Assembly: GCA_964370025.1 (NCBI GenBank)
Contig: CAYJGJ010000004.1
Span: 6,216 to 70,215, forward strand
Source: an uncultured Oscillospiraceae bacterium
Lineage (GTDB): Bacteria; Bacillota; Clostridia; Peptostreptococcales; Anaerovoracaceae
DNA: 64,000 nucleotides
Direction: 5' to 3'
The notes below the pieces were generated by a model that saw nothing but the letters and a program-made list of their open reading frames with translations, had not been told where the DNA came from and ran no database searches. Shown piece by piece: positions 35,732 through 60,536 of the stretch. The stretch's first letter is position 1. Every line of letters starts with the position of its first letter. A program made the position numbers and the translations under genes.

Positions 35732-37333
35732 ATGAAAAAATATATTTTCGTAACAGGAGGTGTTATCTCTGGGCTGGGGAAGGGAATCACTGCAGCTTCA
35801 CTAGGCAGATTGCTAAAGCAAAGGGGATTACGAGTAACAGCGCAAAAACTTGATCCATATATCAATATAGATCCTGGGACAATGAACCCACTCCAACATG
35901 GTGAGGTTTTTGTGACTGATGATGGTGCCGAAACAGATCTTGACTTGGGACATTACGAAAGATTTATCGACGAAAACTTGACAAAACTCTCTAATTTAAC
36001 ATCTGGTAGGGTATATTGGAACGTATTAAACCGTGAGCGCGAAGGGCATTATCTCGGACAGACAGTCCAAGTAATTCCACATATTACTGGAGAAATCAAG
36101 GATTTTATTTACGCTGGAGCTCGCAACAGCGACTGCGACATACTTATATCAGAAATTGGTGGAACTACAGGAGATATAGAAAGTGGTCCGTTTATAGAAG
36201 CTATACGTCAAATTTCACTTGAGGTAGGGAGCGAAAACTGTATTTTTATCCATGTTACTCTAGTTCCATATCTTAAAGGATCCAAAGAACACAAATCTAA
36301 GCCGACACAGCATTCAGTTAAGGAATTGCGGTCGATGGGAATATCGCCGAATATTATCGTAGCAAGGGCGGATGAACACTTAAGCGAGGATATCCTTAAG
36401 AAAATTTCACTATTTTGCAATGTAAAAGAAGATTGCGTCATAGAAAACACAACTCTAAATGGTTTATATGAAGCACCTATAATGTTGCATGAAAACGGGT
36501 TAGATGAAGTAGTTTGCCGCGAACTAGGACTTAAATTGCCCGAGGCTGACTTGATAGAATGGCGCGAAATGACAAAAAAAATAAATAATAGAAATAGTGA
36601 AAAGAAAATAGGCATAGTTGGGAAATATGTAGATCTTCACGATGCCTATCTGTCTATTATAGAAAGCCTTAATCATGCCGGATACGAGACGGGAGTAAAT
36701 GTTAATATTAAGTGGATCGATAGTGAAACTGTCAATGAAGATAGCGAAAATGAGCTATTCAGTGACTTAGATGGAATGATAATTCCAGGCGGTTTTGGCG
36801 ATAGAGGTATTGAGGGAAAAGTTACTGCTTGCAAATATGCGAGAGAAAATAATCTTCCATTTCTCGGAATTTGTTTAGGAATGCAAATTGCCGCGATTGA
36901 GTTTGCGAGGAATATTTGTGGCATTAAAGATGCAAATTCAGAAGAATTCGATTCGAATTCAAAACATAAAGTCATTGATTATATTCCTGAACAATTGAAA
37001 ATAACACAAAAAGGGGGAACGATGCGATTGGGGGCATATCCTTGTTTCGTAAAAAAAGGTAGCTTGTTAAATAATTTATATAATAGTGATAAAATTACCG
37101 AAAGACACCGTCACCGATTTGAATTTAATAATGAGTACAGAGAAATGATGTTAGAAAACGGTCTTGTTTTTTCTGGCGTATCCCCTGATGGAACACTAGT
37201 AGAAGCAATAGAAATTCCAGAGAATAAATTCTTTGTAGGAGTCCAATTTCATCCTGAATTTAAAAGTCGGCCTAACAAGCCGCATCCATTGTTTGTAGGG
37301 TTACTAAACTCAACGATAAATCAAGAAAGGTAG
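35732..37333 (+). CDS. pyrG: CTP synthase
   Basis: [32 protein letters not shown], GATase GICLGMQ and HPEF. Confidence 0.95.
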
Positions 37334-37341
37334 CGTATAAT

Positions 37342-38055
37342 ATGGAAAAAAGAGAGATAATGTACGAGGGAAAAGCTAAAAAGGTTTTTTCTACAGATGA
37401 ATCTGAATATTGCATTGTATCGTATAAAGACGATGCTACAGCATTTAATGGCGAAAAAAAGGGGACAATTGTAGGGAAAGGCGAAGTAAATAATAGGATG
37501 TCAAATTTTATGTTTGCGAAGCTCGAAAAAAAGGGAATAAAAACACATTTTGTGAAGGAGCTTGATGCAAGAAATACCGTTGTTAAAAAAGTCGATATTA
37601 TTCCTTTGGAGGTAATCGTAAGGAATATAGCGGCAGGAAGTCTAGCTACTAGGCTTGGTATTCCAGAAGGTACAATTATGAAGGAAACGGTTTTAGAGTT
37701 TTGCTATAAAAATGACGAATTGGGGGACCCTATGGTCAACGAGTATCATATTTTAGCTTCGGAGTTCGCAACAAAAGAAGAAATTGATATTATCTCTGAT
37801 ATGAGCATGAAAGCAAATGACATAATGCTTAAATACTTTAAGACTGTCAATATAGATTTAATAGATTTTAAACTCGAATTTGGGAAGACGAGCAAAGGAG
37901 ATGTGATTTTAGCCGATGAAATATCCCCAGATACATGTAGATTTTGGGATAGTGATACAGGAGAAAAACTTGATAAGGATAGATTTAGACGTGATATGGG
38001 TGGAGTTGAGGAAGCATATGCCGAAATGATGAAAAGACTTGGAATCGATAAGTAA
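37342..38055 (+). CDS. purC: Phosphoribosylaminoimidazole-succinocarboxamide (SAICAR) synthase
   Basis: [35 protein letters not shown]. Length 237 aa. Confidence 0.93.
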
Positions 38056-38065
38056 GGAGTATAAT

Positions 38066-39499
38066 ATGCAAAGAGACACGTATGAATCGCCTTTATGCTC
38101 GAGATATGCGGAGAAAGAAATGAAGTACTTGTTTTCTCCGGACATGAAATTCAAAACTTGGCGAAAACTATGGATTGCACTTGCAGAAGCTGAAAAAGAG
38201 CTTGGGTTGAATATTACAGATGAGCAAATTAGAGAACTTATGATCAATGCAGAGAATATAAATTATGAGATCGCAGAGAAACAGGAGAAAATCGTTCGCC
38301 ACGACGTAATGAGTCATGTCTATGCTTATGGACAACAGTGTCCTAATGCGATGCCAATAATACATCTTGGTGCCACGTCGTGTTATGTAGGTGATAATAC
38401 GGATATTATTGTAATGACTGAAGCAATGAAAATCGTAAAGCGAAAGATAATTACTTTAATTGAAGCATTGTCAGATTTCGCAATGAAATATAAGGACATG
38501 CCAACGCTTGGATTTACACATTTTCAAGCAGCGCAGCCTACTACTGTAGGAAAAAGGGCCGCCTTGTGGATTGCCGATCTAGTAAGTGATCTTGAGGATA
38601 TCGATTATTTATTATCGGGAATTAAGCTTTTGGGGTCAAAAGGTACAACAGGCACGCAAGCAAGTTTTCTGGAACTTTTTGAAGGCGACCATGATAAAGT
38701 AAAATTGCTCGATAAAAAGATTGCCGAGAAAATGGGATACAGCGATTGTTATTCTGTAAGTGGTCAAACGTATTCAAGAAAAATTGATTATAGAATTCTT
38801 TCTACTTTAAGCAGTATTGCTCAAAGTGCAACAAAGTTCTCAAACGATATCCGGCTATTAGCACACCTAAAGGAGATTGAAGAACCTTTCGAAAAAGATC
38901 AAATCGGCTCGTCTGCAATGGCATATAAAAGAAATCCTATGAGAAGTGAGCGAATAGCCTCACTCGCAAGATATATTATTATTGATGCACTAAACCCAGC
39001 GATAACATCCGCCACACAGTGGTTTGAAAGAACTCTTGACGATTCTGCAAACAAGAGAATCAGTATTCCAGAGGCGTTTTTGGCTACTGATGCCATTTTA
39101 AATTTATACATAAATGTAGCTGATGGATTAGTTGTTTATCCGAAAGTTATAACCCAAAGACTTATGAATGAACTTCCATTCATGGCTACTGAAAATATTA
39201 TGATGAATGTAGTTAAAAAAGGCGGGGATAGACAAGAGCTTCATGAGAGAATAAGAATACATTCTCTAGCTGCGGCAAAAAAAATTAAAGAAGAGGGTGC
39301 CGAAAATGATCTATTAGAGAGAATTGCAGCAGATCCATTGTTTGCAGTGACGAAGGAAGACCTTAACGATATTCTAAACCCATCTAAATATGTAGGTAGA
39401 GCTCCGGAACAAACAGAAGAATTTATTAATGAAGTAGTAAATTCGATTTTGGAAACTCACAAGGAAGAATTCAAAGAAAAAATCGAAATTTATATTTGA
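38066..39499 (+). CDS. purB: Adenylosuccinate lyase
   Basis: YESPLCSRYA start typical of PurB. GSSAMAYKRNPMRSE fumarate-lyase signature. AAGGAG lies before ATG 38066. Confidence 0.93.
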   Translation: MQRDTYESPLCSRYAEKEMKYLFSPDMKFKTWRKLWIALAEAEKELGLNITDEQIRELMINAENINYEIAEKQEKIVRHDVMSHVYAYGQQCPNAMPIIHLGATSCYVGDNTDIIVMTEAMKIVKRKIITLIEALSDFAMKYKDMPTLGFTHFQAAQPTTVGKRAALWIADLVSDLEDIDYLLSGIKLLGSKGTTGTQASFLELFEGDHDKVKLLDKKIAEKMGYSDCYSVSGQTYSRKIDYRILSTLSSIAQSATKFSNDIRLLAHLKEIEEPFEKDQIGSSAMAYKRNPMRSERIASLARYIIIDALNPAITSATQWFERTLDDSANKRISIPEAFLATDAILNLYINVADGLVVYPKVITQRLMNELPFMATENIMMNVVKKGGDRQELHERIRIHSLAAAKKIKEEGAENDLLERIAADPLFAVTKEDLNDILNPSKYVGRAPEQTEEFINEVVNSILETHKEEFKEKIEIYI

Positions 39500-39644
39500 T
39501 AAAGTAATAAATTCACTTTGGATTGTCACTGATAAGAGTCTATAGTAAAACGAAAGTAATATTCAATAAAACTCTATATCAAGTTTGAACAATCCTCAGG
39601 GAGAACTCGAAGAAAACTACACAAAAGAGCGAAAGGGAAATATA

Positions 39645-40934
39645 ATGGTAAAAGCAATAGTGGGCGCATGTTGGGGTGACGAGGGCAAAGGGAAAATAAC
39701 AGATGTTTTCGCCGAGAGTTCCGACATTGTTGTGAGATTTCAAGGTGGCAGCAATGCGGGACATACAATCATAAACAATTATGGTAAATTTGCACTTCAT
39801 CAACTTCCTTCAGGAGTATTCAGAGAAAATACGATTAACATAATTGGAAATGGTGTCGCACTTTCTGTGGAAAATTTTGTAGAGGAAATAGAGGAACTAA
39901 AGTCAAGGGGTGTGCCAAAGCCTAAAATTATAATTTCGGATAGATGCCAAATCGTTATGCCGTATCACAAGGAACTTGATAGTATGGAAGAAGCGAGGCT
40001 GTCAACGAAATCTTTTGGGTCGACAAAATCGGGAATAGCACCGTTTTACTCTGATAAATATGCAAAAATTGGCTTCCAAGTAAGCGAACTTTTTGATGCA
40101 AAAGAATACTTGCTCGAAAAAATTGAGGCAGTTTGTGAAATAAAAAATTTACTGTACACTAAATTGTATAACGCTACCTCACTTGATCCATCAGAAATAT
40201 ACGATACACTTATGAAGTATAAAGAACAGATAACTCCGTATGTAGCAGATACTTTCACTATTTTGAGAGATTCAGTTAAAAATGATAAAACAATATTACT
40301 TGAAGGACAACTTGGCTCATTAAAGGATCCAGATTTAGGAGTTTATCCCATGGTTACATCATCTTCTCCAATAGCAGGTTTTGGAGCTGTAGGCGCAGGA
40401 GGAATACCACCTTATGCGATTAAGGAAATTATTTCGGTTGTAAAGGCATATTCAAGTTCAGTAGGTGCAGGGGAATTCGTCAGTGAAATCTTTGGCACCG
40501 AAGCAGATGAACTTCGAAAAAATGGAGGAGACGGAGGAGAATATGGCGCAACAACGGGAAGACCTAGAAGAATGGGCTGGCTTGATTTAGTAGCTGCTAG
40601 ATACGGATCCCAGCTTCAGGGTGCGACATCTGTAGCGTTTACGGTTATAGATGCATTGGGATATTTAGATGAAATTCCTGTATGCGTTGCCTATGAGCTA
40701 GCTGGTAAAAGAATTGATCATTTCCCAACTACGACTGAACTAAAAAAGTGCACCCCAATATTAGAAGTTTTGCCTGGATGGAAGTGCGACATAACTGGAA
40801 TTACATCGTATGAGGAACTTCCGCGAAATGCAAAAAAATATATTGAATTCGCGGAAAGACATTTGGGGATTCCGATCTCATTGATTTCGAATGGTCCCAA
40901 AAGAGAACATATTATATATAGAAAGATAAATTAA
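39645..40934 (+). CDS. purA: Adenylosuccinate synthetase
   Basis: VGACWGDEGKGKITD P-loop, GGSNAGHT, GTTGRPRR. Start ATG 39645 was chosen by homology of the N-terminus. Confidence 0.93.
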   Translation: MVKAIVGACWGDEGKGKITDVFAESSDIVVRFQGGSNAGHTIINNYGKFALHQLPSGVFRENTINIIGNGVALSVENFVEEIEELKSRGVPKPKIIISDRCQIVMPYHKELDSMEEARLSTKSFGSTKSGIAPFYSDKYAKIGFQVSELFDAKEYLLEKIEAVCEIKNLLYTKLYNATSLDPSEIYDTLMKYKEQITPYVADTFTILRDSVKNDKTILLEGQLGSLKDPDLGVYPMVTSSSPIAGFGAVGAGGIPPYAIKEIISVVKAYSSSVGAGEFVSEIFGTEADELRKNGGDGGEYGATTGRPRRMGWLDLVAARYGSQLQGATSVAFTVIDALGYLDEIPVCVAYELAGKRIDHFPTTTELKKCTPILEVLPGWKCDITGITSYEELPRNAKKYIEFAERHLGIPISLISNGPKREHIIYRKIN

Positions 40935-40948
40935 TTAGAGGTAATTAC

Positions 40949-42772
40949 ATGTGTGGAATAATTGGATACATAGGATATGAGCAGGCTACTCCATTTTTGT
41001 TAAATGGGTTAAAAAAACTTGAATATAGAGGTTATGATTCTGCAGGTGTTGCTGTTTGGAATGGGAAAGGAATCGAGATAGCAAAATCAAAAGGAAGACT
41101 TAATAATCTAGTCGATTTAATCGATGGTGGGAAAAAAATACAAGGTAGTGTGGGGATTGGTCATACGCGATGGGCGACGCACGGGGCTCCATCAGATTTG
41201 AATTCTCATCCACACCCCAGTTCGGGTGGAAAATTTGCGGTTGTTCACAACGGCATAATTGAAAATTATCTAGTGGTAAAAAACAAACTTACAAGCAAAG
41301 GGGTGAATTTCGCATCGGAAACGGACACAGAAGTAATCGCACAAATGCTGGAATACTATTATGATGGTGATGTCATGTCTACAATCAACAAAGTTGTGTC
41401 GAAAGTAGAGGGGAGTTACGCTCTTGCAATTATTTGCAAAGATACCCCAGATATACTTTATGCAGTAAAAAAAGATAATCCATTAATAGTTGGATTAGGC
41501 ACAAGCGAAAACTACATCGCATCGGATATTCCAGCTATTTTGGCAAAAACAAGGGATATATACAGACTTTCTGACGGTGAAGTTGCAATACTTACTACTG
41601 ATAATGTTTCCGTGTACAATAGCGACAATGAAAAAGTTGAAAAAGAAGTAGAAAAAATCACGTGGGATATAGAATCAGCCGAAAAAGGTGGTTATGAGCA
41701 TTTCATGATGAAAGAAATTATGGAGCAGCCTGATGCAATTAACAAAACTATACTTCCACGAATTAAAGATGGCAATATTATACTAGAGGAGCTAACACTA
41801 TCTAAGGAATATTTAGAAAATATATCTAAGATGTTCATAGTCGGATGTGGTACAGCGTACAACGTAGGCGTTGCTGCAAAATATATGTTTGAAGAACTGC
41901 TTAGAATATCTGTAGAAGTTGAAACAGCTTCTGAATTCAGATACCGAAACCCCGTAGTTGATGATAAAACTTTAGTGATAATTATAAGCCAATCTGGAGA
42001 AACCGCAGATTCTCTAGCCGCGTTGAGGCACGCAAAAAGCCAAGGTGCCAAAACAATTGGAGTTGTAAATGTCATGGGGTCTACTATCGCAAATGAAAGC
42101 GACGACGTTATATATACATGGGCAGGAATTGAAATTTCTGTAGCTTCCACTAAGGCATATAGTACGCAGCTAGCAGTAATGTATTTGATAGGAATATATA
42201 TGTCTGACAAACTCGGAAAGCTTGAAAAAAAGACAAAAGAAAAGTATATCTCTGAATTGCTCTCCATTCCAGAAAAAATAAAGAAGCTTCTCGACAATAA
42301 GGTGGAAATACAAAAAATTGCAGGGCATCATTTTAATGCAAACGATATGTATTTTATTGGACGCAATGTAGACTATGCTACGTCGCTAGAAGGTTGTTTA
42401 AAGCTTAAAGAGATTTCGTATATCCACTCGGAAGCCTATGTCGCAGGTGAGCTTAAGCATGGTCCAATCTCATTAATTGAAGATGGTACGATAGTAATTT
42501 CGATTGCTGCGTATAGGAGGTTGTTTGATAAGACGATTTCGAACATTAGGGAGGTAAAAGCAAGAGGTGCTGTGTGTTGGACTATAACTACGGATGGACA
42601 AGAGGTGCCAGAAGATATCGAATATGTTTCGCATATGCCAGAAATTACAGATTTCATGTTGCCTTCGCTTACAATTATAGAATTGCAGTTGTTTTCATAC
42701 TATGTGGCAGCGATGCGCGGTTGTGACATTGATAAGCCGCGTAACCTTGCGAAATCAGTAACTGTAGAGTAG
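40949..42772 (+). CDS. glmS: Glutamine--fructose-6-phosphate aminotransferase
   Basis: MCGIIGYIG Ntn start, two SIS domains (SQSGETADS), C-terminal KPRNLAKSVTVE. Confidence 0.95.
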   Translation: MCGIIGYIGYEQATPFLLNGLKKLEYRGYDSAGVAVWNGKGIEIAKSKGRLNNLVDLIDGGKKIQGSVGIGHTRWATHGAPSDLNSHPHPSSGGKFAVVHNGIIENYLVVKNKLTSKGVNFASETDTEVIAQMLEYYYDGDVMSTINKVVSKVEGSYALAIICKDTPDILYAVKKDNPLIVGLGTSENYIASDIPAILAKTRDIYRLSDGEVAILTTDNVSVYNSDNEKVEKEVEKITWDIESAEKGGYEHFMMKEIMEQPDAINKTILPRIKDGNIILEELTLSKEYLENISKMFIVGCGTAYNVGVAAKYMFEELLRISVEVETASEFRYRNPVVDDKTLVIIISQSGETADSLAALRHAKSQGAKTIGVVNVMGSTIANESDDVIYTWAGIEISVASTKAYSTQLAVMYLIGIYMSDKLGKLEKKTKEKYISELLSIPEKIKKLLDNKVEIQKIAGHHFNANDMYFIGRNVDYATSLEGCLKLKEISYIHSEAYVAGELKHGPISLIEDGTIVISIAAYRRLFDKTISNIREVKARGAVCWTITTDGQEVPEDIEYVSHMPEITDFMLPSLTIIELQLFSYYVAAMRGCDIDKPRNLAKSVTVE

Positions 42773-42799
42773 TTGTAACTAGATTATGTAGGAGAAAAA

Positions 42800-44332
42800 A
42801 TGCCGGAAGTTTCATATAAGGAGAAAATAGTAGTACTTGATTTTGGAGGGCAATATGCACAGTTAATTGCACGAAGAGTTCGCGATTTGAAAATTTACTG
42901 TGAAATAAAATCATATAAAACAGACCCTGAACAGTTGAAGGAATACAAGGGTATAATTTTCACAGGTGGACCTAATTCTGTTTATCTCGATGAGTCACCA
43001 AAGTGCTCGAAACAAATCTTTGAAATGGGAGTTCCTATATTAGGAATTTGTTATGGTGCGCAATTAATGGCGCACATGCTCGGTGGCGAGGTTAAATCTG
43101 CAATAAATAGGGAATATGGAAATTGTGAAGTCGTTTTTGAAAATAATTCTAAGGTGACATTTGGAAAAAGTGTTACCTGGATGAGTCATACGGATTATAT
43201 CTATAGTTTACCTGAAGGATTTAGGATTACGGGTATGAGCGAAGGATGTTCTTGCGCATCGATGGAAAATGAAGAAAAAAAACTGTATGGTATGCAATTC
43301 CACCCCGAGGTAGAGCATAGCGAAAGTGGTAATGAATTTATAAAGAACTTCCTATATGATATATGCGGTTGTCAGGGTGATTGGCAGATGAAATCATTTG
43401 CAAATACAACCATAGAAAATATTCGAAATCGAGTAGGTGATAAAAAAGTTCTCTGTGGACTTTCGGGAGGCGTAGATTCTACGGTTGCGGCAATGCTAGT
43501 CCATAGAGCAATAGGTCAGAAGTTGACTTGTATTTTTGTCGATCACGGAATGTTGCGAAAAAATGAAGGTGATATGGTAGAGCGAGTTTTTAAAAATGAG
43601 TTCGAAATGAATATTATTAGAGTAAATGCACAGGAAAGATTTCTACAAAGACTTGAAGGGATAATCGATCCTGAGACTAAGAGAAAAATTATCGGAGAAG
43701 AATTTGTTCGTGTGTTTGAAGAGGAAGCTAATAAACTTGGTGAATTGGATTTTTTATGCCAAGGAACAATATATCCTGATGTTGTAGAAAGTGGAGAAGG
43801 TGAGGCAGCAGTAATAAAAAGTCATCACAATGTAGGCGGACTTCCAGAAGAGATTGGATTTGGGGGAATCCTTGAACCATTGAGAGATTTATTCAAAGAT
43901 GAGGTAAGAAAAGTCGGGATAGAGCTTGGTATTCCCGAAAACTTAGTTTGGAGACAGCCATTTCCAGGTCCTGGATTGGCAGTGCGAATCATAGGAAATA
44001 TTACACAGGAGAAAATAGCTCTTTTGCAGGATGCAGACGAAATATTTAGGAAAGAGATAGCAAATTTTGGTCTCGAAAGGAAAATCAATCAATATTTTGC
44101 TGTCCTTTCTGGAATGAAGACAGTAGGAGTAATGGGGGACGGTGGCATATACGCAGAAACGATTGTATTAAGAGCTGTAACTACAAGTGATTTTATGACA
44201 GCTGACTGGGCAAAGCTGCCATATGACTTAATGGAAAGAGCCTCTAATCGAATTACCAATGAAGTAAAAGGGGTCAGTAGAGTTCTTTATGACATAACAT
44301 CTAAACCTCCATCTACCATCGAATTCGAATAG
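42800..44332 (+). CDS. guaA: GMP synthase (glutamine-hydrolysing), full length
   Basis: GATase GICYGAQLM and HPEV, ATP-PPase SGGVDS, C-terminal PPSTIEFE. Length 510 aa. Confidence 0.95.
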
Positions 44333-49370: not shown

Positions 49371-50669
49371 TTATTCCCACTCAATCGTGCCTGGTGGCTT
49401 AGGTGTAATGTCATATACAACTCTATTCACTCCGTTTACTTCCTCTACTATGCGGCAAGCAAGTTTATTTAGGAGCGGATAAGGAAGCTCAGCGATTTGT
49501 GCAGTCATTGCATCGCTTGAATGTACTGCGCGAATTGCTATTGCTTGTCCGTACGTTCGAGCGTCATCACTTACTCCTACAGATAGGCATCCTGGGCATA
49601 ATGCAAAAAATTGCCATATCGCTCTTTCCAGCCCCGCCTTAGATATTTCATCGCGCAGAATATAATCTGCTTCTCTTACCATTTCTAATTTTTCACGTGT
49701 AATTGCTCCTACAACACGCACGCCGAGCCCTGGGCCGGGAAATGGTTGTCTCCATACTTGTTCGGAAGGCAATCCTAACGTTTCGCCTACTTTACGTACT
49801 TCGTCTTTAAATAGCCATTTTACTGGTTCAAGAAGTTCGAAGTCTATATCCTCTGGCAATCCACCTACATTGTGATGTGATTTCACTACACCTTTTTTTG
49901 ATTCGCTTTCAATAATATCTGGGTAAATCGTTCCTTGTACAAGGAAATCCATTTTTCCAAGTTTCTTTGATTCTTCTTCAAATACTCTTATGAATTCTTC
50001 TCCGATTATTTTTCTCTTTGTTTCGGGATTATCTACTCCCTCCAATTTATTTAAGAATCTATCTACAGCATCTATGCTGATCAGTGGAATTCCAAATTGT
50101 TTCGCAAATATTTCATTAACTAATTCCGGTTCACCTTTTCTCATGAGGCCATGATTTACGAACATACAAGTAAGTTGATTTCCTATTGCTTTGTGTACAA
50201 GTGCTGCACAAACTGCACTATCAACCCCTCCGGAGAGTGCGCATAAAACTTTTTTATCTCCTACTGTCTGTTTGATGTTATTGACTGTGTCTTCGACGAA
50301 TGCTTCTATAGTCCAGTTGCAGGAAAATGCATTGGAATCGATAAATTCTCTAATATCTTTTTCACTTTGTGTGTTTCCGAGTCTAAGCAAAGAAGATTGT
50401 GAAAATCCGAGTGTAGCCAATGATGCGACGAAGTTATCTACGTCGGATTGGGGAATGGAGGAGAAATTACTCGATGTGTTATCCGCAACGTCTGTTAATT
50501 CGTCATCGCCTATTAAAACGATTGCCCTCGGGCTCAGTACTTTGATTTTTTTAAGGCATCCTTCGATCGGTGTAACTTCACAGTAAACGTTGCTTTCTCT
50601 TACGATTTTCGCAACTTTTTGGTTGTTATGTGCACCAAAATCTACTATTAGTAATAACTCTTTTTGCAT
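49371..50669 (-). CDS. GMP synthase paralog: intact ATP-pyrophosphatase and dimerisation domains, vestigial GATase domain
   Basis: SGGVDS P-loop, [21 protein letters not shown]-terminal PPGTIEWE. The roughly 125-aa N-terminus keeps [20 protein letters not shown] but lacks the GICYG cysteine and the HPE histidine/glutamate. Confidence 0.8.
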
Positions 50670-50712: not shown

Positions 50713-50997
50713 TCACGTATAGTAAGTTTCGGTTATTTCTTTAATAACCTCGTCAAACTGAGAGTTATCGTAAACAATATGAGTAGTCCTAGTTCCAACA
50801 AGTCCGCTGTAGTCGGGGCATGCTGCGGGGCAACCACAAAGAACTATTAAATGATCTGCTTCTTGTGATTTTCCACTCGAAGCAATAATATATTCAAAAT
50901 TTGAAAGCTTCATTTTTACATTGTCTAAAAATGCTACTCTGTCGTATCTTGGATTGCACCCTCCACAGTACTTAATAAGTATAGATTTTGCACTCAT
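50713..50997 (-). CDS. Small cysteine-rich protein of unknown function
   Basis: 94 aa with YCGGCNPRYDR and LCGCPAACP motifs (five Cys in two clusters). Lies 43 nt upstream of the guaA paralog on the same strand. No family confidently recognised. Confidence 0.45.
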   Translation of the reverse strand: MSAKSILIKYCGGCNPRYDRVAFLDNVKMKLSNFEYIIASSGKSQEADHLIVLCGCPAACPDYSGLVGTRTTHIVYDNSQFDEVIKEITETYYT

Positions 50998-51982: not shown

Positions 51983-52270
51983 ATTGATCGGTCATCTTTT
52001 CTCTTTTTACGCATATAAAACAGGATGGAAGGGATGTTAACTGAGTCATCCTTTCCGTATAAAACATACGGAGCCATTTAGTGTAAATCACCAGATGAGT
52101 TTATTAGCGCATTTGCTATAATATAATTATTTATGTCTTTAATATCAAGTAATCTTGGTAGATTATAACATATTAGCTATTATAAGTAAATTGCTTAAAT
52201 ATGGATTTATTTTATTTTTTGAAAAGATGAGAAATAAAATAAAAATTAGATTTATAAGAAATCGTATAAA

Positions 52271-52296
52271 GTCGAATACTGTCGAAATTTGTCGAA
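52271..52296 (+). promoter_or_regulatory. Three tandem Spo0A-box-like heptamers at 10-bp phasing
   Basis: aGTCGAAtacTGTCGAAattTGTCGAA: GTCGAA at 52271, 52281 and 52291. Two copies are perfect TGTCGAA (0A-box consensus TGNCGAA). A -10-like TAGAAT lies at 52333-52338 with a poor -35. Confidence 0.6.
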
Positions 52297-52390
52297 CGAT
52301 TTTTATGGACTATTTGTTGAAATGGTGTATATTAGAATCATCAGATGGGGCTTAATGCATCAACTATGTTGGGAAATGAGGTGTAAAATT

Positions 52391-52735
52391 ATGAACGGGA
52401 AAATAGCAATTATAAGTCGGACTTCCAGTACAGTCGTAGATCCAAACGATGTGCTTTTTATAGAAAGTTATTCGCGGAAGGTTAATGTTGTTACAGTAAA
52501 TGGGACATATACGCAATATGGTCAACTCGGTAATATTCGCGAGGTGCTTGATGAAAAATTTTGTTGGGTCCTAAAAAACAAAACAATCAATTTGGACATG
52601 GTAAAGGAGGTGAAAAATGGTGTAATCATATTCAAAAATGACGAAAAGATGATACTGGCCGATTTGGCGTTCAGGAAAGCAAAACAAGGATACAATAAGT
52701 ACTTGAGAGAAACACCTAGTAATTACTTTATATGA
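52391..52735 (+). CDS. Stand-alone LytTR DNA-binding domain protein (no receiver domain)
   Basis: 114 aa. VLFIESYSRKVNVVTVNGTYTQYGQLGNIREVL...FCWVLKNKTINLDMV matches the LytTR fold pattern. GAGGTG lies before ATG 52391. Confidence 0.7.
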   Translation: MNGKIAIISRTSSTVVDPNDVLFIESYSRKVNVVTVNGTYTQYGQLGNIREVLDEKFCWVLKNKTINLDMVKEVKNGVIIFKNDEKMILADLAFRKAKQGYNKYLRETPSNYFI

Positions 52736-52771
52736 ATTGGATATATTCTATATAGAAAGGAAGGAATTCTC

Positions 52772-53350
52772 ATGCACAAGATAAATAAGGGAATTAATAT
52801 TAATCTTCCATATGAACAAGTGGCTTCAATGGGTAAATTATTCTCGGAGTGGAAGAAGAATAATAATGATGAAATTAACTTAATTATCGTGCTAAATCCT
52901 GACGAAATAATCAGAGAGAGATTTAAATTTTTTAGCAATATTATATTTATTACTTTTGATTACAGCGAAAATGATATAGAATTACTTGTAGAGGACTATA
53001 GTAAAAACATAATTGACTATGAAATTCAGCGTATAGGTATTGCGTCTAATTCCAAAGGGTATAAATATTTAAAGGAAGCAGTCAAGCTTGTTTTAAAAGA
53101 TCCGGAGCTTATTTCGGCAATGACCAAGGAGTTGTATCCGACTATTGCCAAAATGCACAGTGTTTCTTCCAATAGTGTGGAAAAGGCAATTAGAACGTCA
53201 ATAAATGTGGCATGGGGGAAAGGTTCAACATTTGAAAATTCACTGGTAAGCGAGGAGTTATTTTATTTTGTTGTAAAACCGAAAAACTCTGAATTGATTT
53301 CTGTAATAGCTGAGAGAATTCGTTGTAACTACGCTAGCAGTAAAGGATAA
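52772..53350 (+). CDS. Spo0A C-terminal (effector/DNA-binding) domain protein lacking a recognisable receiver domain
   Basis: IASNSKGYKYLKEAVKLVLKDPELISAMTKELYPTIAKMHSVSSNSVEKAIRTSINVAWGKG is collinear with the Spo0A effector domain (HIKGY.YLR.AI...ITK.LYP.IAK....SRVERAIRHAIEVAW). The roughly 85-aa N-terminus is too short for a receiver. Confidence 0.7.
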   Translation: MHKINKGININLPYEQVASMGKLFSEWKKNNNDEINLIIVLNPDEIIRERFKFFSNIIFITFDYSENDIELLVEDYSKNIIDYEIQRIGIASNSKGYKYLKEAVKLVLKDPELISAMTKELYPTIAKMHSVSSNSVEKAIRTSINVAWGKGSTFENSLVSEELFYFVVKPKNSELISVIAERIRCNYASSKG

Positions 53351-54292: not shown

Positions 54293-54550
54293 AAGTTGTA
54301 AATTATAAAGGTGAGATACGAAATAGTCTTACTTACTAATTTTAGTGCCTATTATAATAGATATATTTTTGAATATATGGTATAATCAGAAATAATCAAA
54401 ATAATCAACAGAAAGTAACAAGAAACTTCATTCTGCTTTGAATTAAAGTGAAGGTTGTAATAAAGATAAAAAATGCGAAGCTCAGCCGATAATGTATAAC
54501 ATATTGAGCTTTAGTCGAGATTTTTTATTGCATAAGTGAGAGGTGAACAA

Positions 54551-57500
54551 ATGAGTGAGAACTATACTAAGGAAAAAGGATTTAGCCATAAGTTCAAATC
54601 TATTATCGATGCGACTCCGCTTTGTCTCAATCTATGGAATTATGAGTTAAAAAATGTACTATGCAATAGACAGGTAATGGCCTTGTTTGATTTGAAGAGT
54701 GAACAGCAGTATATTGATGAATTTTTTAATTTGTCTCCCGAATATCAACCTAATGGAAAATTAAGTAGTACGCTGGCACAAGAGCAGATAAAAAAAGCAT
54801 TTTCGGAAGGCTATAACAAATTTAAATGGTTGCATTGCAAATTGAATGGGGAAGAAATACCTTGCGAGATTACATTGCGAAGAATTAAAATCTCTGATGA
54901 TGAAGATTATATAGCTGGATTTACCCGAGATTTACGAGATGAACTTATGGGAAGTTCCTATGTCGAAGAATACGAAAACTATTTTTTGAATAGAATTTCA
55001 GAAAGAACTTTGTTTAATAAAATTTCTGAAATATCAAAGGAGTGGTATTTTTCTTACGATATTCGTACATCTTTAATTAGATTTTATGGTAGTTACGAAA
55101 GAACTTCCAACAGAGATTATTTCCCACTTAATGAACCTCTTAAAAAGGGGAAAGTCCACGAGGAAGATGCAAACTTATATTTAGAACTCATGGAAAATAT
55201 GAAAAAAGGTGTGTATGAACCCCTTGACATCAGGTATTTGCAACCTAATGGGGCGTATAGATATTATAGATTCGTATATCAAACTGTAAACGATCCAAAT
55301 GGTGATCCAGTATTTGTTGTCGGAAAAGGTGCCGACGTCCATGAACAAAAAACCTTAGAAAGGCGCTCTAGGATCGATTTGCTCACTGAGTGTTACAACA
55401 AGAACGCTGCGGAATACATAATTGCTGAAAAAATGATTGAGATGAAAAACGATGAATTTGCATTGTTTTTTATAGATATAGATAATTTTAAGACAATAAA
55501 TCACAATGTGAGCCATCATTTTGGCGATGAAGTATTAAAGAATATTTCAAAAAGCATTAAATCTATATTTAGAAGTGATGATATAATTGCGAGAATCGGT
55601 GGCGATGAGTTTATCGTTTTTACGACTAACCCAGGTAACAAGAAAGTGTTGGAGAAAAAAGCAAAAAGCATTGTCGATATGCTTAACACATCTTACAAAT
55701 ATGATGATATAGAATGTCCACTTTCGGCAAGTGTTGGAATTGCAAGGCATTCGGCTGGGAATTCGTACGATGACTTATATAACGCGGCTGACCAAGCTTT
55801 GTATAATGCTAAAAAAGCTGGCAAAAATAGATATTCGTTTTACGATAGCTCCATGGAAGAGGGCACAATCGGAGAGTTGACTAAATTGGATAATTCCAAT
55901 AGAGTGACGGGCGCAATACTCGACTATGAGTTAGTTACAGAAGTTTTTGATATTTTATATGATGAACGTTACAATCTCACTGATGCTGTCAATCTTTCGT
56001 TACAATACATAGCGGATAGATTTAATGCCGATCGAAGTTATATCTTCGAAACGTTCGATAATGGAAAGACATATGACAATACATATGAATTTTGCAAAGA
56101 AGGAGTTACTGCGGAGATAGGTAACCTTAAAGGAATTGATAGAGAAGTTCTCCAAGAGTTTTTTATAGAAAACAAGAATGGTATTCTATACTCTAATGAT
56201 CTAGCGGCTACTTTCAAACAAGAAAATGCCTACAAGTTGATGGCGGATCAGGGGATTCGTTCTTTTGCCCATGCGCAAATTAGAAAAGATGGATATGTAA
56301 CAATCTTTTTGGGGCTTGATGACTGTACAAAAGCTAGGATATGGAGTGATCGCGAAATAAATAGTTTGCAATATATAGTAAAAATAATGTCTATATTGCT
56401 TAAAAGTGCGCATATGCAAAACTCGCTGAGTGAACTCGGAGAATATAATAGAACTACCATGCATATTTCTGCTATGTCCGAAGAGTTATCATACGTCTCG
56501 GATGTCGACACCTATGAATTGTTGTATATAAATAGGGCAATGCTCAATGTGTTAGGCAATCCACCTGAGAGCGTATGGAAAGGTGGAAAATGTTATGAAC
56601 TTCTTCAAGGAAAAACTGAACCTTGTGATTTCTGTACAAACCACTTACTAAATGAACACACCTCGTATGAGTGGTCAATTCATAATGAACTGTTTAATAA
56701 AACTTATCTTTTGAAGGATAAGCTCATACCTATTGGCGGAAGACTTGCAAGACTTGAAACCGCTACTGATATTACGAAACTTAGCGAGCTTGAGAACACG
56801 TTAGTTGAAAAACTGGAGGAAGAAAGGCTTCTTACAACTTGTATAGCAGAGCTTCACTCGGATGAAACTCCCAAAATATCAATCAGTAATATACTAGGAC
56901 ATATATCGAAATATTTTTCTTCCGATAGAACAGTGTTGTTCCAAATATCAAAAAATGGAGAACATTTAAATAACACTTACGATTGGTGTTCTGAGGGATT
57001 CCACTCTCGTATAGATGAGTTGCAAACGATATCTATAGAAAATACGCGAAAACTATTAGACAAAATAAAAGAATTCAATCAATTCTATGAGCCTTCCGTG
57101 GAAGACGCTTACTCGAGCAACGATGCTGAATATAAATGGTTAAAATCGCTAGGAGTTGAACATTTCATTGCATCATCAATCAAGGATATCGATGGAAATG
57201 TAACAGGCTTTATTGGTATAGAACACCCAAAAGCTAGCACTGATAAAATTTGGATTTTGGAGTCTATATCTAAGTTTGTAGAAAATTTCCTAAATAAAAA
57301 TGAGCTGATATCGTCGTTGCATAGACTTAGTTATTATAGTAGTTTAACGGGGATTTACAACCGCCAAAGTTATATCGATGCAATATCCGAAGTAGGAATT
57401 CAATCTTCAACATCTTTGGGGGTTGCTCATATAAATATAAATAAGATGAGAATAATAAATATTACTCATGGTTTAGATTTTGGTGACGCAGTGATCAAAA

Positions 57501-58528
57501 AAGTTGCGGAACTGTTAACATCGCTGTTTGGAAAGAATGTCTATCATACTGCTGGCGATGAGTTTGTTGTAGTATTGAAGAATGAAGATGAATTAGAATT
57601 TGACAACAAGATAAATAAGGCAAAAAACCTCTTTGCTGACCAAAAGGACTTTACGGTCTCTATTGGGTATGCTTGGAATAAGAATACTGTTACTAGAAGA
57701 GAAGAAAATATTTCAAAATCAGACAACACCTTAGAATTAACAACTCAAGGATATACAACAATATTGTCTGAAAACTTAAAGAGAGAAATAATTGAAGGTA
57801 AATTTGTAGTCTTTTTGCAACCGCAGATAGAAATGGCTACAGGACAATTTACTAGTGCAGAAGCTTTAATAAGAAGAAAAGATGCAAAAGGAAATATACA
57901 ACCACCTGTTACGTTTATTCCTTTTTATGAAAAAGAAGGAGCTATTGCGCAAATTGATATGTTTGTACTTGAAACTATTTGTAAGTTGTTTTATGAATGG
58001 GAGCAAAAAGATATTAATAAGCAAATGCAGGTGTCTGTTAATTTCTCGCGACATACGATAGCAAACAAAGGAATTGTCGATTTGATTTGTTCTGTATGTG
58101 ATAAATACAATACTGATAAGACACGCTTGGTTATTGAAATTACAGAAACAGTAAACAGCGTAGATGATGCGTCGTTGTCCGAAATCGTTTCGAAATTTAC
58201 CGGTGCAGGATTTAAAGTATCGTTAGATGATTTTGGTAGCGGACATTCTAATCTATCGTCTCTCAGGTTGTCTCATTTCGACGAGATTAAAATCGACATG
58301 GGCATAGTATGTGAATTGCCACAAAGTCAACGATCAATGATTCTTACAGAAAATGCTCTAAATCTCTGCAGCATGTTAGAAGATGTAGTATCGGTTGCCG
58401 AGGGAATTGAAACTGTTGAACAGTACAATGTGCTTAAAGAATTAGGATGCAATAAAGGGCAAGGTTACTATTTCGATAAACCAATGCCTATAAAACGATT
58501 TGAAGAAAAATATATTAAACAAAAATAA
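54551..58528 (+). CDS. Giant cytoplasmic c-di-GMP protein: PAS-PAS-GGDEF(active, I-site)-GAF-PAS(Cys motif)-GAF-GGDEF(degenerate)-EAL
   Basis: RSDD-x5-GGDEF at the first cyclase domain, GAF-like blocks, PAS with GKCYELLQGKTEPCDFC, second GGDEF degenerated to TAGDEF. EAL motifs EALIRR, EITET, DDFGSGHS, KIDMG, EGIET, QGYYF. GAGAGGTG lies before ATG 54551. Confidence 0.85.
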   Translation: MSENYTKEKGFSHKFKSIIDATPLCLNLWNYELKNVLCNRQVMALFDLKSEQQYIDEFFNLSPEYQPNGKLSSTLAQEQIKKAFSEGYNKFKWLHCKLNGEEIPCEITLRRIKISDDEDYIAGFTRDLRDELMGSSYVEEYENYFLNRISERTLFNKISEISKEWYFSYDIRTSLIRFYGSYERTSNRDYFPLNEPLKKGKVHEEDANLYLELMENMKKGVYEPLDIRYLQPNGAYRYYRFVYQTVNDPNGDPVFVVGKGADVHEQKTLERRSRIDLLTECYNKNAAEYIIAEKMIEMKNDEFALFFIDIDNFKTINHNVSHHFGDEVLKNISKSIKSIFRSDDIIARIGGDEFIVFTTNPGNKKVLEKKAKSIVDMLNTSYKYDDIECPLSASVGIARHSAGNSYDDLYNAADQALYNAKKAGKNRYSFYDSSMEEGTIGELTKLDNSNRVTGAILDYELVTEVFDILYDERYNLTDAVNLSLQYIADRFNADRSYIFETFDNGKTYDNTYEFCKEGVTAEIGNLKGIDREVLQEFFIENKNGILYSNDLAATFKQENAYKLMADQGIRSFAHAQIRKDGYVTIFLGLDDCTKARIWSDREINSLQYIVKIMSILLKSAHMQNSLSELGEYNRTTMHISAMSEELSYVSDVDTYELLYINRAMLNVLGNPPESVWKGGKCYELLQGKTEPCDFCTNHLLNEHTSYEWSIHNELFNKTYLLKDKLIPIGGRLARLETATDITKLSELENTLVEKLEEERLLTTCIAELHSDETPKISISNILGHISKYFSSDRTVLFQISKNGEHLNNTYDWCSEGFHSRIDELQTISIENTRKLLDKIKEFNQFYEPSVEDAYSSNDAEYKWLKSLGVEHFIASSIKDIDGNVTGFIGIEHPKASTDKIWILESISKFVENFLNKNELISSLHRLSYYSSLTGIYNRQSYIDAISEVGIQSSTSLGVAHININKMRIINITHGLDFGDAVIKKVAELLTSLFGKNVYHTAGDEFVVVLKNEDELEFDNKINKAKNLFADQKDFTVSIGYAWNKNTVTRREENISKSDNTLELTTQGYTTILSENLKREIIEGKFVVFLQPQIEMATGQFTSAEALIRRKDAKGNIQPPVTFIPFYEKEGAIAQIDMFVLETICKLFYEWEQKDINKQMQVSVNFSRHTIANKGIVDLICSVCDKYNTDKTRLVIEITETVNSVDDASLSEIVSKFTGAGFKVSLDDFGSGHSNLSSLRLSHFDEIKIDMGIVCELPQSQRSMILTENALNLCSMLEDVVSVAEGIETVEQYNVLKELGCNKGQGYYFDKPMPIKRFEEKYIKQK

Positions 58529-58589
58529 ATTACAGCAAGCCGTTATCATTACATCTGGTGCAAGTACGCAAATAGTCCCCGAAGGAGGT

Positions 58590-60536
58590 ATGTGGATGGG
58601 TTATAAAAATGATGGAGAACAATCCCAAAATCAAACGGAGGAATCCAAACAAATAAAACATGAGAAAGAATTCAATGATGCATTTAAAGCTATTATAGAT
58701 GCTAATCCACTTTGCTTGAATTTGTGGAATAGGAAAATGGAAAATCTTCTTTGCAATAAGCAAGCGGTATTGCTTTTTGATCTCGAAAGCGAAGACCAAT
58801 ACTTGAAGGAATTTTTCAACTTGTCACCAGAGTATCAACCTAATGGTGTGCGTAGTAGTGAACTTGCTGCGCAGCACGTCGAAAAGGCATTTTCGGATGG
58901 GTATACCAAATTTCGATGGCTACACCAAAACTTAAGAGGAGTAGAAATACCGACTGAAATTATTTTATCCAAGATTCTTGTAGCAGATAACGAGGAGCTT
59001 GTAGTTGGATTTACAAGAGATTTGCGTTCGGAGATATTCGGCAGTGATTCAAATAACGAATACGAAAATTATTTCCTTAACAAAATATCTGATAGAACAC
59101 TGATAGAATGCTTGACAGAGTTGACGGATGAGTGGTTTTTTGCATTGGATACACGTACTTCTATTATCCAATATTACGGGAAGCAAGTTAAAGAATATAG
59201 TGAAAATAACAGTTATTCTATGACATTTGGATCTTTGATTGAACTTGGAATAGTACATGAAGATGACAAAGTGCAGTATGACAAGCTTGTTCAAAATATC
59301 AAGAGGGGGTACTATGAACCAATTGATATTAGATACAAGCAAAAGAATGGAAATTTTAAATATTATCGTTACATGTACCAATCGGTCAAGGATAGCGAAG
59401 GTAATTTAGTATTTGTTGTAGGAAAATCAGTTGATGTACACGAACAAAAAATGCTAGAAGAGCGTTCTAAAGTAGATTGGTTGACAGGATGTTATAACAA
59501 AATGGTATCAGAACACATCGTAGCGGAGATTCTTTTAAAAGAAAGCAACAAACAACATGCCCTGTTTATCGTAGATATCGATAATTTCAAGGCTATCAAT
59601 GATAACCTCGGGCACTACTTCGGTGACGAAGTTTTAAAAGAAATATCGCTAAATTTGAGGCAATCTTTTAGAAATCAAGATATTGTCGCTAGAATTGGTG
59701 GAGATGAATTTACTGTATTTATGTCTAACATTTCTTCGCGTGAAATTTTAGAAGAAAAAGCAGCAAAAATAATGGAGGCATTTAGCAGAACTTATTCAGG
59801 AGAGTACAAAAATTATTCGATTTCTGGCAGTGTAGGTGTGGCAATTTTCCCTGAGGCCGGGAATAATTATGTGGATCTTTACAAGTCTGCAGATAAAGCA
59901 CTTTACGAAGCAAAGATGTTAGGCAAAAACAGATATGTTTTTTACGATGAGTCTTTGATAGATGGTACTATGAAAAACATTACAAAGATTGAAAACGCTG
60001 ACAGGATGGCTGCAGCATATTTCGATTATGATTTAATAAACGCAGCATTTGAAACCCTTTACGATGCTCAAAAGGATCAAAACACAGCAATTGACAATAT
60101 ACTTCAATATGTGTGTAAAAAATACAATATTGACAGATGTTATATTTTTGAAACGAACGATGAGGGAGGGACATATAACAATACTTTTGAACAATGTCTT
60201 CCTAATATAAGCAAAGAAATCGATTCTCTTCAGGGTCTCCCAGGGGAAATGTTTGAGGATTTATTCAGTGAAGCGTTGCATAATGGCATAGTGTATACAA
60301 ATAACTTAGAAGCAATGTTTAAGGCCGAAGGCTCTTATGAAACTATGGCAAATCAGGGCATAAAATCATTTGCTCACGCTCAAGTAAGAAAAGGGGACTA
60401 CGTGTCATTCTTTTTGGGTGTAGATGACTGTACAAAAGCGAGAGTTTGGAGTGAAAAAGAGATTAATACTTTGCAATACCTTTCTAAATTTATCGCACTC
60501 TACCTGCATGGAAACACTTCTCAAGAAAAAAAATAA
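58590..60536 (+). CDS. PAS-PAS-GGDEF-GAF diguanylate cyclase, tandem paralog of the N-terminal half of the preceding gene
   Basis: Collinear, visibly similar sequence (for example FKAIIDANPLCLNLWN...FNLSPEYQPNG, RNQD-x5-GGDEF, GIKSFAHAQVRKGDYVSFFLGVDDCTKARVWSEKEINTLQY). GGAGG lies before ATG 58590. The ORF-track start 58500 overlaps the upstream gene. Confidence 0.85.
   Translation: MWMGYKNDGEQSQNQTEESKQIKHEKEFNDAFKAIIDANPLCLNLWNRKMENLLCNKQAVLLFDLESEDQYLKEFFNLSPEYQPNGVRSSELAAQHVEKAFSDGYTKFRWLHQNLRGVEIPTEIILSKILVADNEELVVGFTRDLRSEIFGSDSNNEYENYFLNKISDRTLIECLTELTDEWFFALDTRTSIIQYYGKQVKEYSENNSYSMTFGSLIELGIVHEDDKVQYDKLVQNIKRGYYEPIDIRYKQKNGNFKYYRYMYQSVKDSEGNLVFVVGKSVDVHEQKMLEERSKVDWLTGCYNKMVSEHIVAEILLKESNKQHALFIVDIDNFKAINDNLGHYFGDEVLKEISLNLRQSFRNQDIVARIGGDEFTVFMSNISSREILEEKAAKIMEAFSRTYSGEYKNYSISGSVGVAIFPEAGNNYVDLYKSADKALYEAKMLGKNRYVFYDESLIDGTMKNITKIENADRMAAAYFDYDLINAAFETLYDAQKDQNTAIDNILQYVCKKYNIDRCYIFETNDEGGTYNNTFEQCLPNISKEIDSLQGLPGEMFEDLFSEALHNGIVYTNNLEAMFKAEGSYETMANQGIKSFAHAQVRKGDYVSFFLGVDDCTKARVWSEKEINTLQYLSKFIALYLHGNTSQEKK

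Follow-up and report, generated by a model that had tools for sequence, protein, structure and literature searches.

A LytTR-only gene and a receiver-less Spo0A-domain gene form a putative chromosomal operon behind three phased 0A boxes

We analyzed a 64,000-nucleotide stretch of DNA (the window; positions are counted from its first letter) on contig CAYJGJ010000004.1 of GCA_964370025.1, the assembly of an uncultured Oscillospiraceae bacterium that GTDB places in the Anaerovoracaceae. Two adjacent genes on its forward strand encode small regulators. Gene 1 (52391..52735) encodes a soluble LytTR-only protein, and gene 2 (52772..53350) encodes a protein with the effector domain of Spo0A and no receiver. 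Upstream of gene 1 are three phased 0A boxes, which are retained in a sister genome (GCA_964367585.1) on a 16.5-kb stretch, L001, that carries orthologues of both genes. Spo0A is the textbook developmental master regulator gated by phosphorylation. Judging from the features described below, the two-gene unit is probably a signal-independent branch or a feedback loop of the sporulation master-regulator circuit. An earlier note on this DNA had described the gene pair and suggested a link to 0A boxes; new relative to it is a testable cis element, the three phased boxes.

The two open reading frames lie exactly where the earlier note put them, and the 36-nt gap and the separate ribosome-binding site of gene 2 are confirmed. 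Gene 1 runs from an ATG at 52391 to a stop codon that ends at 52735 and encodes 114 amino acids; the sequence GAGGTG at 52378-52383 (forward strand) reads as its ribosome-binding site. Gene 2 follows on the same strand, 36 nt after that stop codon, with its ATG at 52772 and a stop codon that ends at 53350, and encodes 192 amino acids. Its own predicted ribosome-binding site, AAGGAAGGA, is at 52757..52765 (forward strand), 6 nt before the ATG. No terminator-like site was found on the forward strand between the two genes or just after them, and Rfam gave zero RNA family matches across the whole window.

Gene 1 matches the Pfam family LytTR (PF04397) over residues 14-91, with E = 2e-10 and 41.2 bits against a gathering cut-off of 22.6. 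It has no other Pfam domain, as expected from its earlier description as a bare LytTR domain, and it weakly matches the LytTR domain of ComE (4CBV). Gene 2 matches Spo0A_C (PF08769; E = 7.6e-28) over residues 84-183. Its score against the NCBIfam Spo0A equivalog TIGR02875 is 94.2 bits (cut-off, 200), from an alignment confined to model positions 152-260. The sole sequence matches of gene 2 in the PDB are two structures of the Spo0A effector domain, 1FC3 and 1LQ1 (E about 2e-20). Neither protein contains a hydrophobic segment of transmembrane strength; the maximum 19-residue Kyte-Doolittle average of gene 2 is 0.73.

We divide gene 2 into an N-terminal domain, residues 1-83 (52772..53020, forward strand), predicted to fold as helix-strand-helix-strand, and a Spo0A effector (helix-turn-helix) domain, residues 84-192 with the stop codon (53021..53350, forward strand). 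The N-terminal domain is an orphan that is unrelated to the receiver by every test run. Gene 2 has no Response_reg match in Pfam even at E <= 1, and its N-terminal region has no Pfam and no PHROGs match. With every filter disabled and Z = 1, a hidden Markov model (HMM) of 51 full-length Spo0A sequences matched only the C-terminal domain of gene 2 (residues 75-189) and that of its orthologue. Aligning residues 1-83 with an alignment of the Spo0A receiver and linker gave an hhalign probability of 0.4%, and an HMM built from the same residues had zero matches among 156 Spo0A relatives. We also looked for the phospho-acceptor pocket of a receiver (D10, D11, D56, and K108 in Bacillus subtilis numbering). 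The acidic pocket is not conserved between the gene 2 orthologues, and the one candidate aspartate located at a strand end, D63, is replaced by lysine in the orthologue. The earlier note had weighed a complete, phosphorylatable receiver against its own description of gene 2 as a Spo0A C-terminal domain without one; Pfam, the HMM, and hhalign find no such receiver, and together with the profile tests they bear the description out.

Structure prediction was confident for the effector domain and not interpretable for the N-terminal part. In a model of gene 2 from a 127-sequence alignment, the confidence score (pLDDT) is 85-97 for the effector domain and 37-65 for the N-terminal part; with a two-sequence alignment the N-terminal pLDDT is 25-35. 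A Foldseek search of the PDB with the gene 2 model returned only 1LQ1 and 1FC3, at target TM-scores of 0.79-0.87 (0.87 for 1LQ1). Foldseek found no receiver fold, which is weak evidence given the low confidence of the N-terminal part of the model. Two candidate origins of the N-terminal domain were rejected. One was a remnant of the last strand and helix of a receiver: MAFFT placed residues 4-27 on the canonical ...YYIVKPFD... segment, but neither the HMM nor hhalign (0.4%) lent support, and the lysine of the KP motif is a leucine in gene 2. The other was kinship with the N-terminus of truncated Spo0A proteins from Lachnospiraceae. A BLASTP alignment stretched to 88% coverage, but in profile comparisons E was 0.014-0.06 (Z = 1) and the probability was 0.7%.

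The DNA upstream of gene 1 contains the sequence AGTCGAA-TAC-TGTCGAA-ATT-TGTCGAA, a GTCGAA-N4 array with a 10-bp period on the forward strand. It comprises a 0A-like box, AGTCGAA (box 1, 52270..52276), and two boxes with the consensus sequence TGTCGAA (box 2, 52280..52286, and box 3, 52290..52296). The counterparts in L001 are TGTCGAA, GGTCGAA, and AGTCGAA, respectively. Over the six boxes of the two genomes, positions 2-7 are constant and all variation is at position 1, a pattern that fits the base-specific contacts reported for Spo0A at G2, C4, and G5 of TGTCGAA (PMC3485338). These three bases are intact in all three candidate boxes near the predicted promoter, in both genomes. The window and L001 each contain a single GTCGAA-N4-GTCGAA-N4-GTCGAA arrangement, and none is expected in shuffled sequence; neither stretch has another double or triple GTCGAA array. 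Spo0A sites that have been footprinted include 0A boxes 3 bp apart and four consecutive boxes (PMC2731898).

Box 3 ends 9 bp upstream of a putative core promoter (52306..52338, forward strand), which matches 9 of 12 positions in a consensus scan. It consists of a weak -35-like hexamer, TGGACT (52306-52311; TAGATT in L001), a -10-like hexamer, TATATT (52328-52333), and an overlapping TAGAAT (52333-52338). The two genomes have the same -10 region, TGTATATTAGAAT. A weak, degenerate fourth box, TGTTGAA (52315..52321, forward strand; TGTCAAA in L001), may lie between the -35-like and -10-like hexamers; footprinting in phage Nf has shown TGTtGAA boxes to be Spo0A sites (PMC2731898). The block that spans the boxes and the promoter (52270..52345, forward strand) appears as a phylogenetic footprint, 80.5% identical to L001, whereas the rest of the intergenic DNA is only 36-42% identical. 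Apart from the 0A boxes themselves, the promoter contains no LytTR-type 9-bp repeats with a 21-bp period. Given that the three phased boxes are conserved and that chance would yield none, transcription of the operon most likely depends on Spo0A-type binding, whether by the product of gene 2, by phosphorylated Spo0A of the cell (Spo0A~P), or by both. The suggestion of a 0A-box link is strengthened by finding three such boxes in the conserved promoter of the operon itself.

A second conserved block occurs in the same intergenic region at 52160-52196, GATTATAACATAYTAGMTATWATAAGTAAATT, and is 72% identical to L001. It overlaps a promoter-like site on the reverse strand, TTTACT-17-TATAAT with a TG extension, and probably serves the divergent Metallophos gene as its promoter.

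Gene 2 shares with canonical Spo0A an effector domain of the same predicted fold (target TM-score up to 0.87) at 36-45% identity, with the motifs KGYxYL, TKxLYPxIA, VExAIR, and KPxNSE included. Across 51 canonical effector domains, 36 positions reach a conservation of 90% or more. Gene 2 retains the usual residue at 24 of these and departs from it at 12, and nine of its changes are common to both orthologues. The recognition-helix region (residues 131-148, 53162-53215, forward strand) reads SVSSNSVEKAIRTSINVAW where the canonical sequence is TTsSRVERAIRHAIEVAW. It differs by T131V, S134N, R138K, H142T, and E145N, and the glutamate and second arginine of VE-AIR are kept. Isolated DNA-binding domains of Spo0A bind genuine targets without phosphorylation (PMC3485338). 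The product of gene 2 should likewise bind DNA without phosphorylation, because the Spo0A-type domain is present and the inhibitory receiver is absent. Binding to 0A-like DNA is plausible given the residues retained, with identical specificity not assured. Candidate 0A boxes in its own promoter are a further feature that gene 2 shares with canonical Spo0A, as 0A boxes have been reported in the promoter of spo0A itself (PMC3485338). Gene 2 is unlike canonical Spo0A in lacking a receiver and a phospho-acceptor pocket, in place of which it has the orphan domain of about 80 residues. It also differs in falling below the equivalog cut-off (94 vs 200 bits), in the 12 changed effector positions, five of them in the recognition helix, and in lying outside any spoIVB-linked locus.

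Both genes are retained in the sister genome. Among 5.8 billion clustered proteins each has one close relative: P0002 for gene 2 (64% identical) and P0009 for gene 1 (76% identical). The genes for these two proteins adjoin each other on a single contig of GCA_964367585.1. A HMMER search of 1.84 billion representatives, 7,701 of which have the domain, found none but the query that covers the N-terminus of gene 2. No further copy of the pair was found in one scan of species-representative genomes and two metagenome scans, each run with few peptide patterns (only two narrow ones in each metagenome scan). The species-representative scan matched only canonical Spo0A proteins, at 32-36% identity. 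The expectation that the pair would be conserved elsewhere therefore holds for one syntenic sister genome and extends to no other copy found.

Between the two genomes synonymous sites are saturated (pS 0.68-0.79). For gene 1 we obtained pN = 0.112 and pS = 0.676 (pN/pS 0.17), and for gene 2 as a whole pN is 0.22 and pN/pS 0.28. Within gene 2 the N-terminal domain has pN = 0.263 and pS = 0.793, and the effector domain has pN 0.18. Since pN is well below the saturated pS, both genes, the orphan domain included, are under purifying selection.

We propose that the two genes constitute a small regulatory operon on the chromosome, which would be co-transcribed from an activator-dependent promoter. 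The upstream element of three helically phased 0A boxes would be bound head to tail by a Spo0A-type helix-turn-helix domain, with activation as the presumed sign of the regulation. In the most economical model, the product of gene 2 would feed back on the promoter of its own operon and also act at other 0A-like sites. Spo0A~P of the cell, if the genome has one, could use the same boxes to turn the operon on. The orphan N-terminal domain probably replaces the receiver in its role in oligomerisation or partner binding. The LytTR-only protein, if co-expressed, would either add a second output that binds DNA independently of any signal or be a partner of the gene 2 product. We give this proposal as a whole, with gene 2 product and/or Spo0A~P acting on the boxes and two signal-independent outputs, about an even chance of being right. 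A more elaborate arrangement, which we regard as rather unlikely, is a phosphorylation-independent two-protein switch. The orphan domain of gene 2 would then sense a ligand or bind the LytTR partner, feedback on the triple 0A-box promoter would be positive or negative, and the switch would compete or cooperate with Spo0A~P.

Several observations weigh against the proposed operon. The pair is known from two genomes only. Co-transcription is not assured, and it is less certain in L001 because the intergenic gap there is 141 nt (L001:7860-8000) rather than the 36 nt found here (52736-52771). The five changes in the recognition helix of gene 2 fall at positions that are 94-96% conserved, and all five are present in both orthologues; its binding specificity may differ from TGTCGAA. 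The stretch ...LFGYT... of canonical Spo0A is presumably the sigma-A-activating region in Bacillus subtilis. Its counterpart in gene 2 is diverged (F159V) and poorly modelled, so activation by the gene 2 product in the manner of Spo0A is uncertain. The boxes could also be read by canonical Spo0A alone. As a separate observation, the L001 spacer holds an imperfect inverted repeat (GTTTCCG...CGAAAC) with no T-run.

Gene calls around the operon agree with the earlier claim that no kinase, phosphotransferase, or membrane partner is adjacent: none is present among the operon neighbours. These neighbours are, upstream and on the opposite strand, a divergent Metallophos phosphoesterase gene and genes for a small Cys-rich protein and a GuaA-like protein, and, downstream, genes for a Cu-oxidase_4 (YfiH-type) protein and GGDEF/EAL proteins. 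The same genes flank the pair, in the same places, in GCA_964367585.1. More broadly, the surroundings include genes for CTP synthase, purC, purB, purA, glmS, guaA, a chemoreceptor, pyruvate kinase, and the GGDEF/EAL proteins. A one-strand run of nucleotide and amino-sugar biosynthesis genes (pyrG, purC, purB, purA, glmS, and guaA) occupies 35732-44332, and we therefore assign the locus to the core chromosome on the basis of gene content. No phage genes were present among the open reading frames scanned over about 17 kb upstream and 10 kb downstream, and the GC content of the operon is near that of the neighbouring DNA. The earlier note had called for the bona fide spo0A to be located; there is no canonical spo0A within the 64-kb window or the 16.5 kb of L001, the DNA that was searched.

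Some of the neighbouring genes have features of their own. The GuaA-like gene at 42800-44332 (forward strand) has the full set of GATase, ATP-pyrophosphatase, and GMP_synt_C domains. A GuaA-like paralogue near the operon (49371-50669, reverse strand; 432 amino acids) has only NAD_synthase-like and GMP_synt_C domains and a short N-terminus without a GATase match; it is kept in L001. Between this gene and the Metallophos gene is a gene for a 94-amino-acid Cys-rich protein (50713-50997, reverse strand; CGGCNPRY...CGCPAAC). Its counterpart in L001 is annotated as Pfam AF_0334, and the window copy has no Pfam match at 1e-5. Downstream of the operon there is a gene for a 1330-amino-acid PAS-GGDEF-GGDEF-EAL protein (54536-58528, forward strand). 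It overlaps by 29 nt the next gene, which encodes a 678-amino-acid GGDEF protein (58500-60536, forward strand), and both are kept in L001. The downstream GGDEF/EAL genes raise the possibility that the regulators are linked to cyclic di-GMP signalling.

The receiver-less form of Spo0A is common. We examined 156 relatives, which are the 150 best cluster representatives together with the hits of the first search. By our own HMM and Pfam, 81 of the 156 have no receiver; of these, 49 contain a single Spo0A_C domain and 32 contain at least two. In the HMMER search, up to six matched stretches occur within a single protein. The 32 tandem Spo0A_C proteins without a receiver include P0010 and P0011, with four copies each, as well as P0012, P0013, and P0025; we know of no description of such proteins. 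Of 6,572 matches in a profile search, the 120 that score best are without exception Spo0A_C-only proteins, 154-205 amino acids long. Those among the 120 with a named source are proteins from Lachnospiraceae metagenome-assembled genomes, which carry the NCBI name Spo0A.

This Lachnospiraceae Spo0A_C-only family (P0159-P0278 and L011-L018, e.g., L015:5001-5522) is very abundant, and one of its members occurs in 381 blocks of the collection. Two members that we looked up are on long chromosomal contigs and have an adjoining glgA-like gene. In L015, recN-like and spoIVB-like genes precede the Spo0A_C-only gene by about 3 kb, a setting that we take to be the usual one of spo0A. The family N-terminus, MEQL..TKDNE.MFKIL..KEFQIMITVP, bears a weak resemblance to the opening strand-helix-strand of a receiver, with an hhalign probability of 10%. 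From these features, the family looks like orthologous spo0A with most of the receiver deleted. Its members are similar to gene 2 in being chromosomal, in lacking a receiver, in having a single Spo0A_C domain, and in length. They differ in that they keep the canonical recognition helix and have no LytTR neighbour, and the N-terminus of gene 2 is unrelated to theirs (probability below 1%).

Truncated spo0A genes that encode the effector domain only are carried by gut phages, for which signal-independent action has been proposed (Schwartz et al. 2023, mBio, PMC10294663). We found receiver-less spo0A homologues in 13 phage records and comparable genes for proteins of 123-199 amino acids on IMG/VR contigs. 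Gene 2 has in common with them a Spo0A DNA-binding domain without a receiver. Unlike them, it is chromosomal and syntenic in two species, has a distinct conserved N-terminus, a LytTR gene in its operon, and three 0A boxes, and has no phage genes nearby.

No LytTR neighbour was found for the other receiver-less members inspected (L003-L010, with a narrow HMM of gene 1, and L011-L018), a small sample in which the contexts are dominated by one family. No LytTR fusion occurs among the 81 receiver-less representatives. The novelty proposed in the earlier note thus divides: a Spo0A domain without a receiver is common among the relatives, in Lachnospiraceae, and in phages, and the pairing with LytTR was not seen in the others inspected. 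What is unusual here is the orphan N-terminal domain, the LytTR-only partner, and the triple-box promoter. The combination is rare and its parts are of known kinds. Among receiver-less Spo0A-domain proteins, we came across none with an experimental characterisation.

Other explanations of the pair have to be weighed against the proposed operon. The operon may simply be a member of the canonical Spo0A regulon, in which only Spo0A~P reads the boxes and the gene 2 product binds other sites or competes as an antagonist elsewhere. The boxes match the canonical core exactly, arrays of boxes upstream of promoters are typical for Spo0A-controlled genes (PMC3485338, PMC2731898), and the five recognition-helix substitutions in gene 2 are specific to its lineage. 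This account requires a canonical spo0A, which was not located in the window or in L001, and the residues that gene 2 keeps (V-E-x-A-I-R, KGYxYL, and KPxNSE) are compatible with binding to 0A-like DNA by gene 2 itself. We consider it somewhat less likely than the proposed operon. Far less credible is that gene 2 descends from a duplicated or transferred spo0A (e.g., from a phage) and is now decaying, with no regulatory role and with an incidental LytTR gene beside it. The abundance of truncated spo0A genes on phage contigs and the extremely restricted gene 2 subfamily would suit such an origin. However, the reading frames are intact with the low pN/pS values given above at saturated synonymous sites, and the promoter is conserved. 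The pair has purine and pyrimidine genes around it in a syntenic core-chromosomal setting, the scanned frames include no phage genes, and the GC content is near that of the neighbouring DNA. We judge a remnant very improbable.

The LytTR gene brings in a further comparison, with the LytTR Regulatory Systems (LRS). In these two-gene operons the first gene encodes a soluble LytTR-only regulator and the next one a transmembrane inhibitor, as in HdrRM and BrsRM of Streptococcus mutans (PMC6193735). Their direct repeats are 11-13 bp apart and 4-11 bp upstream of the -35 in S. mutans, with a strong bias to 10 bp elsewhere, and mediate positive feedback (PMC6193735). The operon here similarly begins with a small soluble LytTR-only regulator and has direct repeats just upstream of a weak -35. 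Boxes 1 and 3 can be read as 9-bp repeats 11 bp apart. Under an LRS-type positive feedback by the LytTR protein, these two boxes would be the autoregulatory site of gene 1, and gene 2 would be a modulator in place of the membrane inhibitor; gene order and repeat position fit the LRS layout (PMC6193735). Such a reading leaves the equally conserved middle box unexplained. The repeat here is the 0A core, present three times with a 10-bp period; it is no LytTR-type repeat (for example, ACCNCTTAN), and LRS have 9-bp LytTR repeats 12 bp apart. The second gene encodes a soluble Spo0A-type DNA-binding protein without a transmembrane segment rather than an inhibitor in the membrane, and three exact 0A cores on an operon that encodes a Spo0A domain are an unlikely coincidence. 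We find feedback by the LytTR protein through these boxes improbable, and we retain the operon driven by a Spo0A-type domain on three phased boxes as the best explanation.

The general importance of the pair is probably small, because it is known from only two genomes. For this lineage, a chromosomal paralogue of Spo0A with an unrelated conserved domain in place of the receiver, encoded behind Spo0A boxes, would be a natural signal-independent input into the 0A regulon, or competition within it. The operon is a compact system for asking how receiver-less Spo0A-domain proteins, of which databases hold thousands, are controlled. The partnership with a LytTR-only protein widens the range of LRS-like two-gene modules. 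If the two-protein switch is true, it would be an LRS-like module with a Spo0A-type DNA binder in place of the membrane inhibitor, and it would rewire how cells of this lineage enter sporulation or stationary phase.

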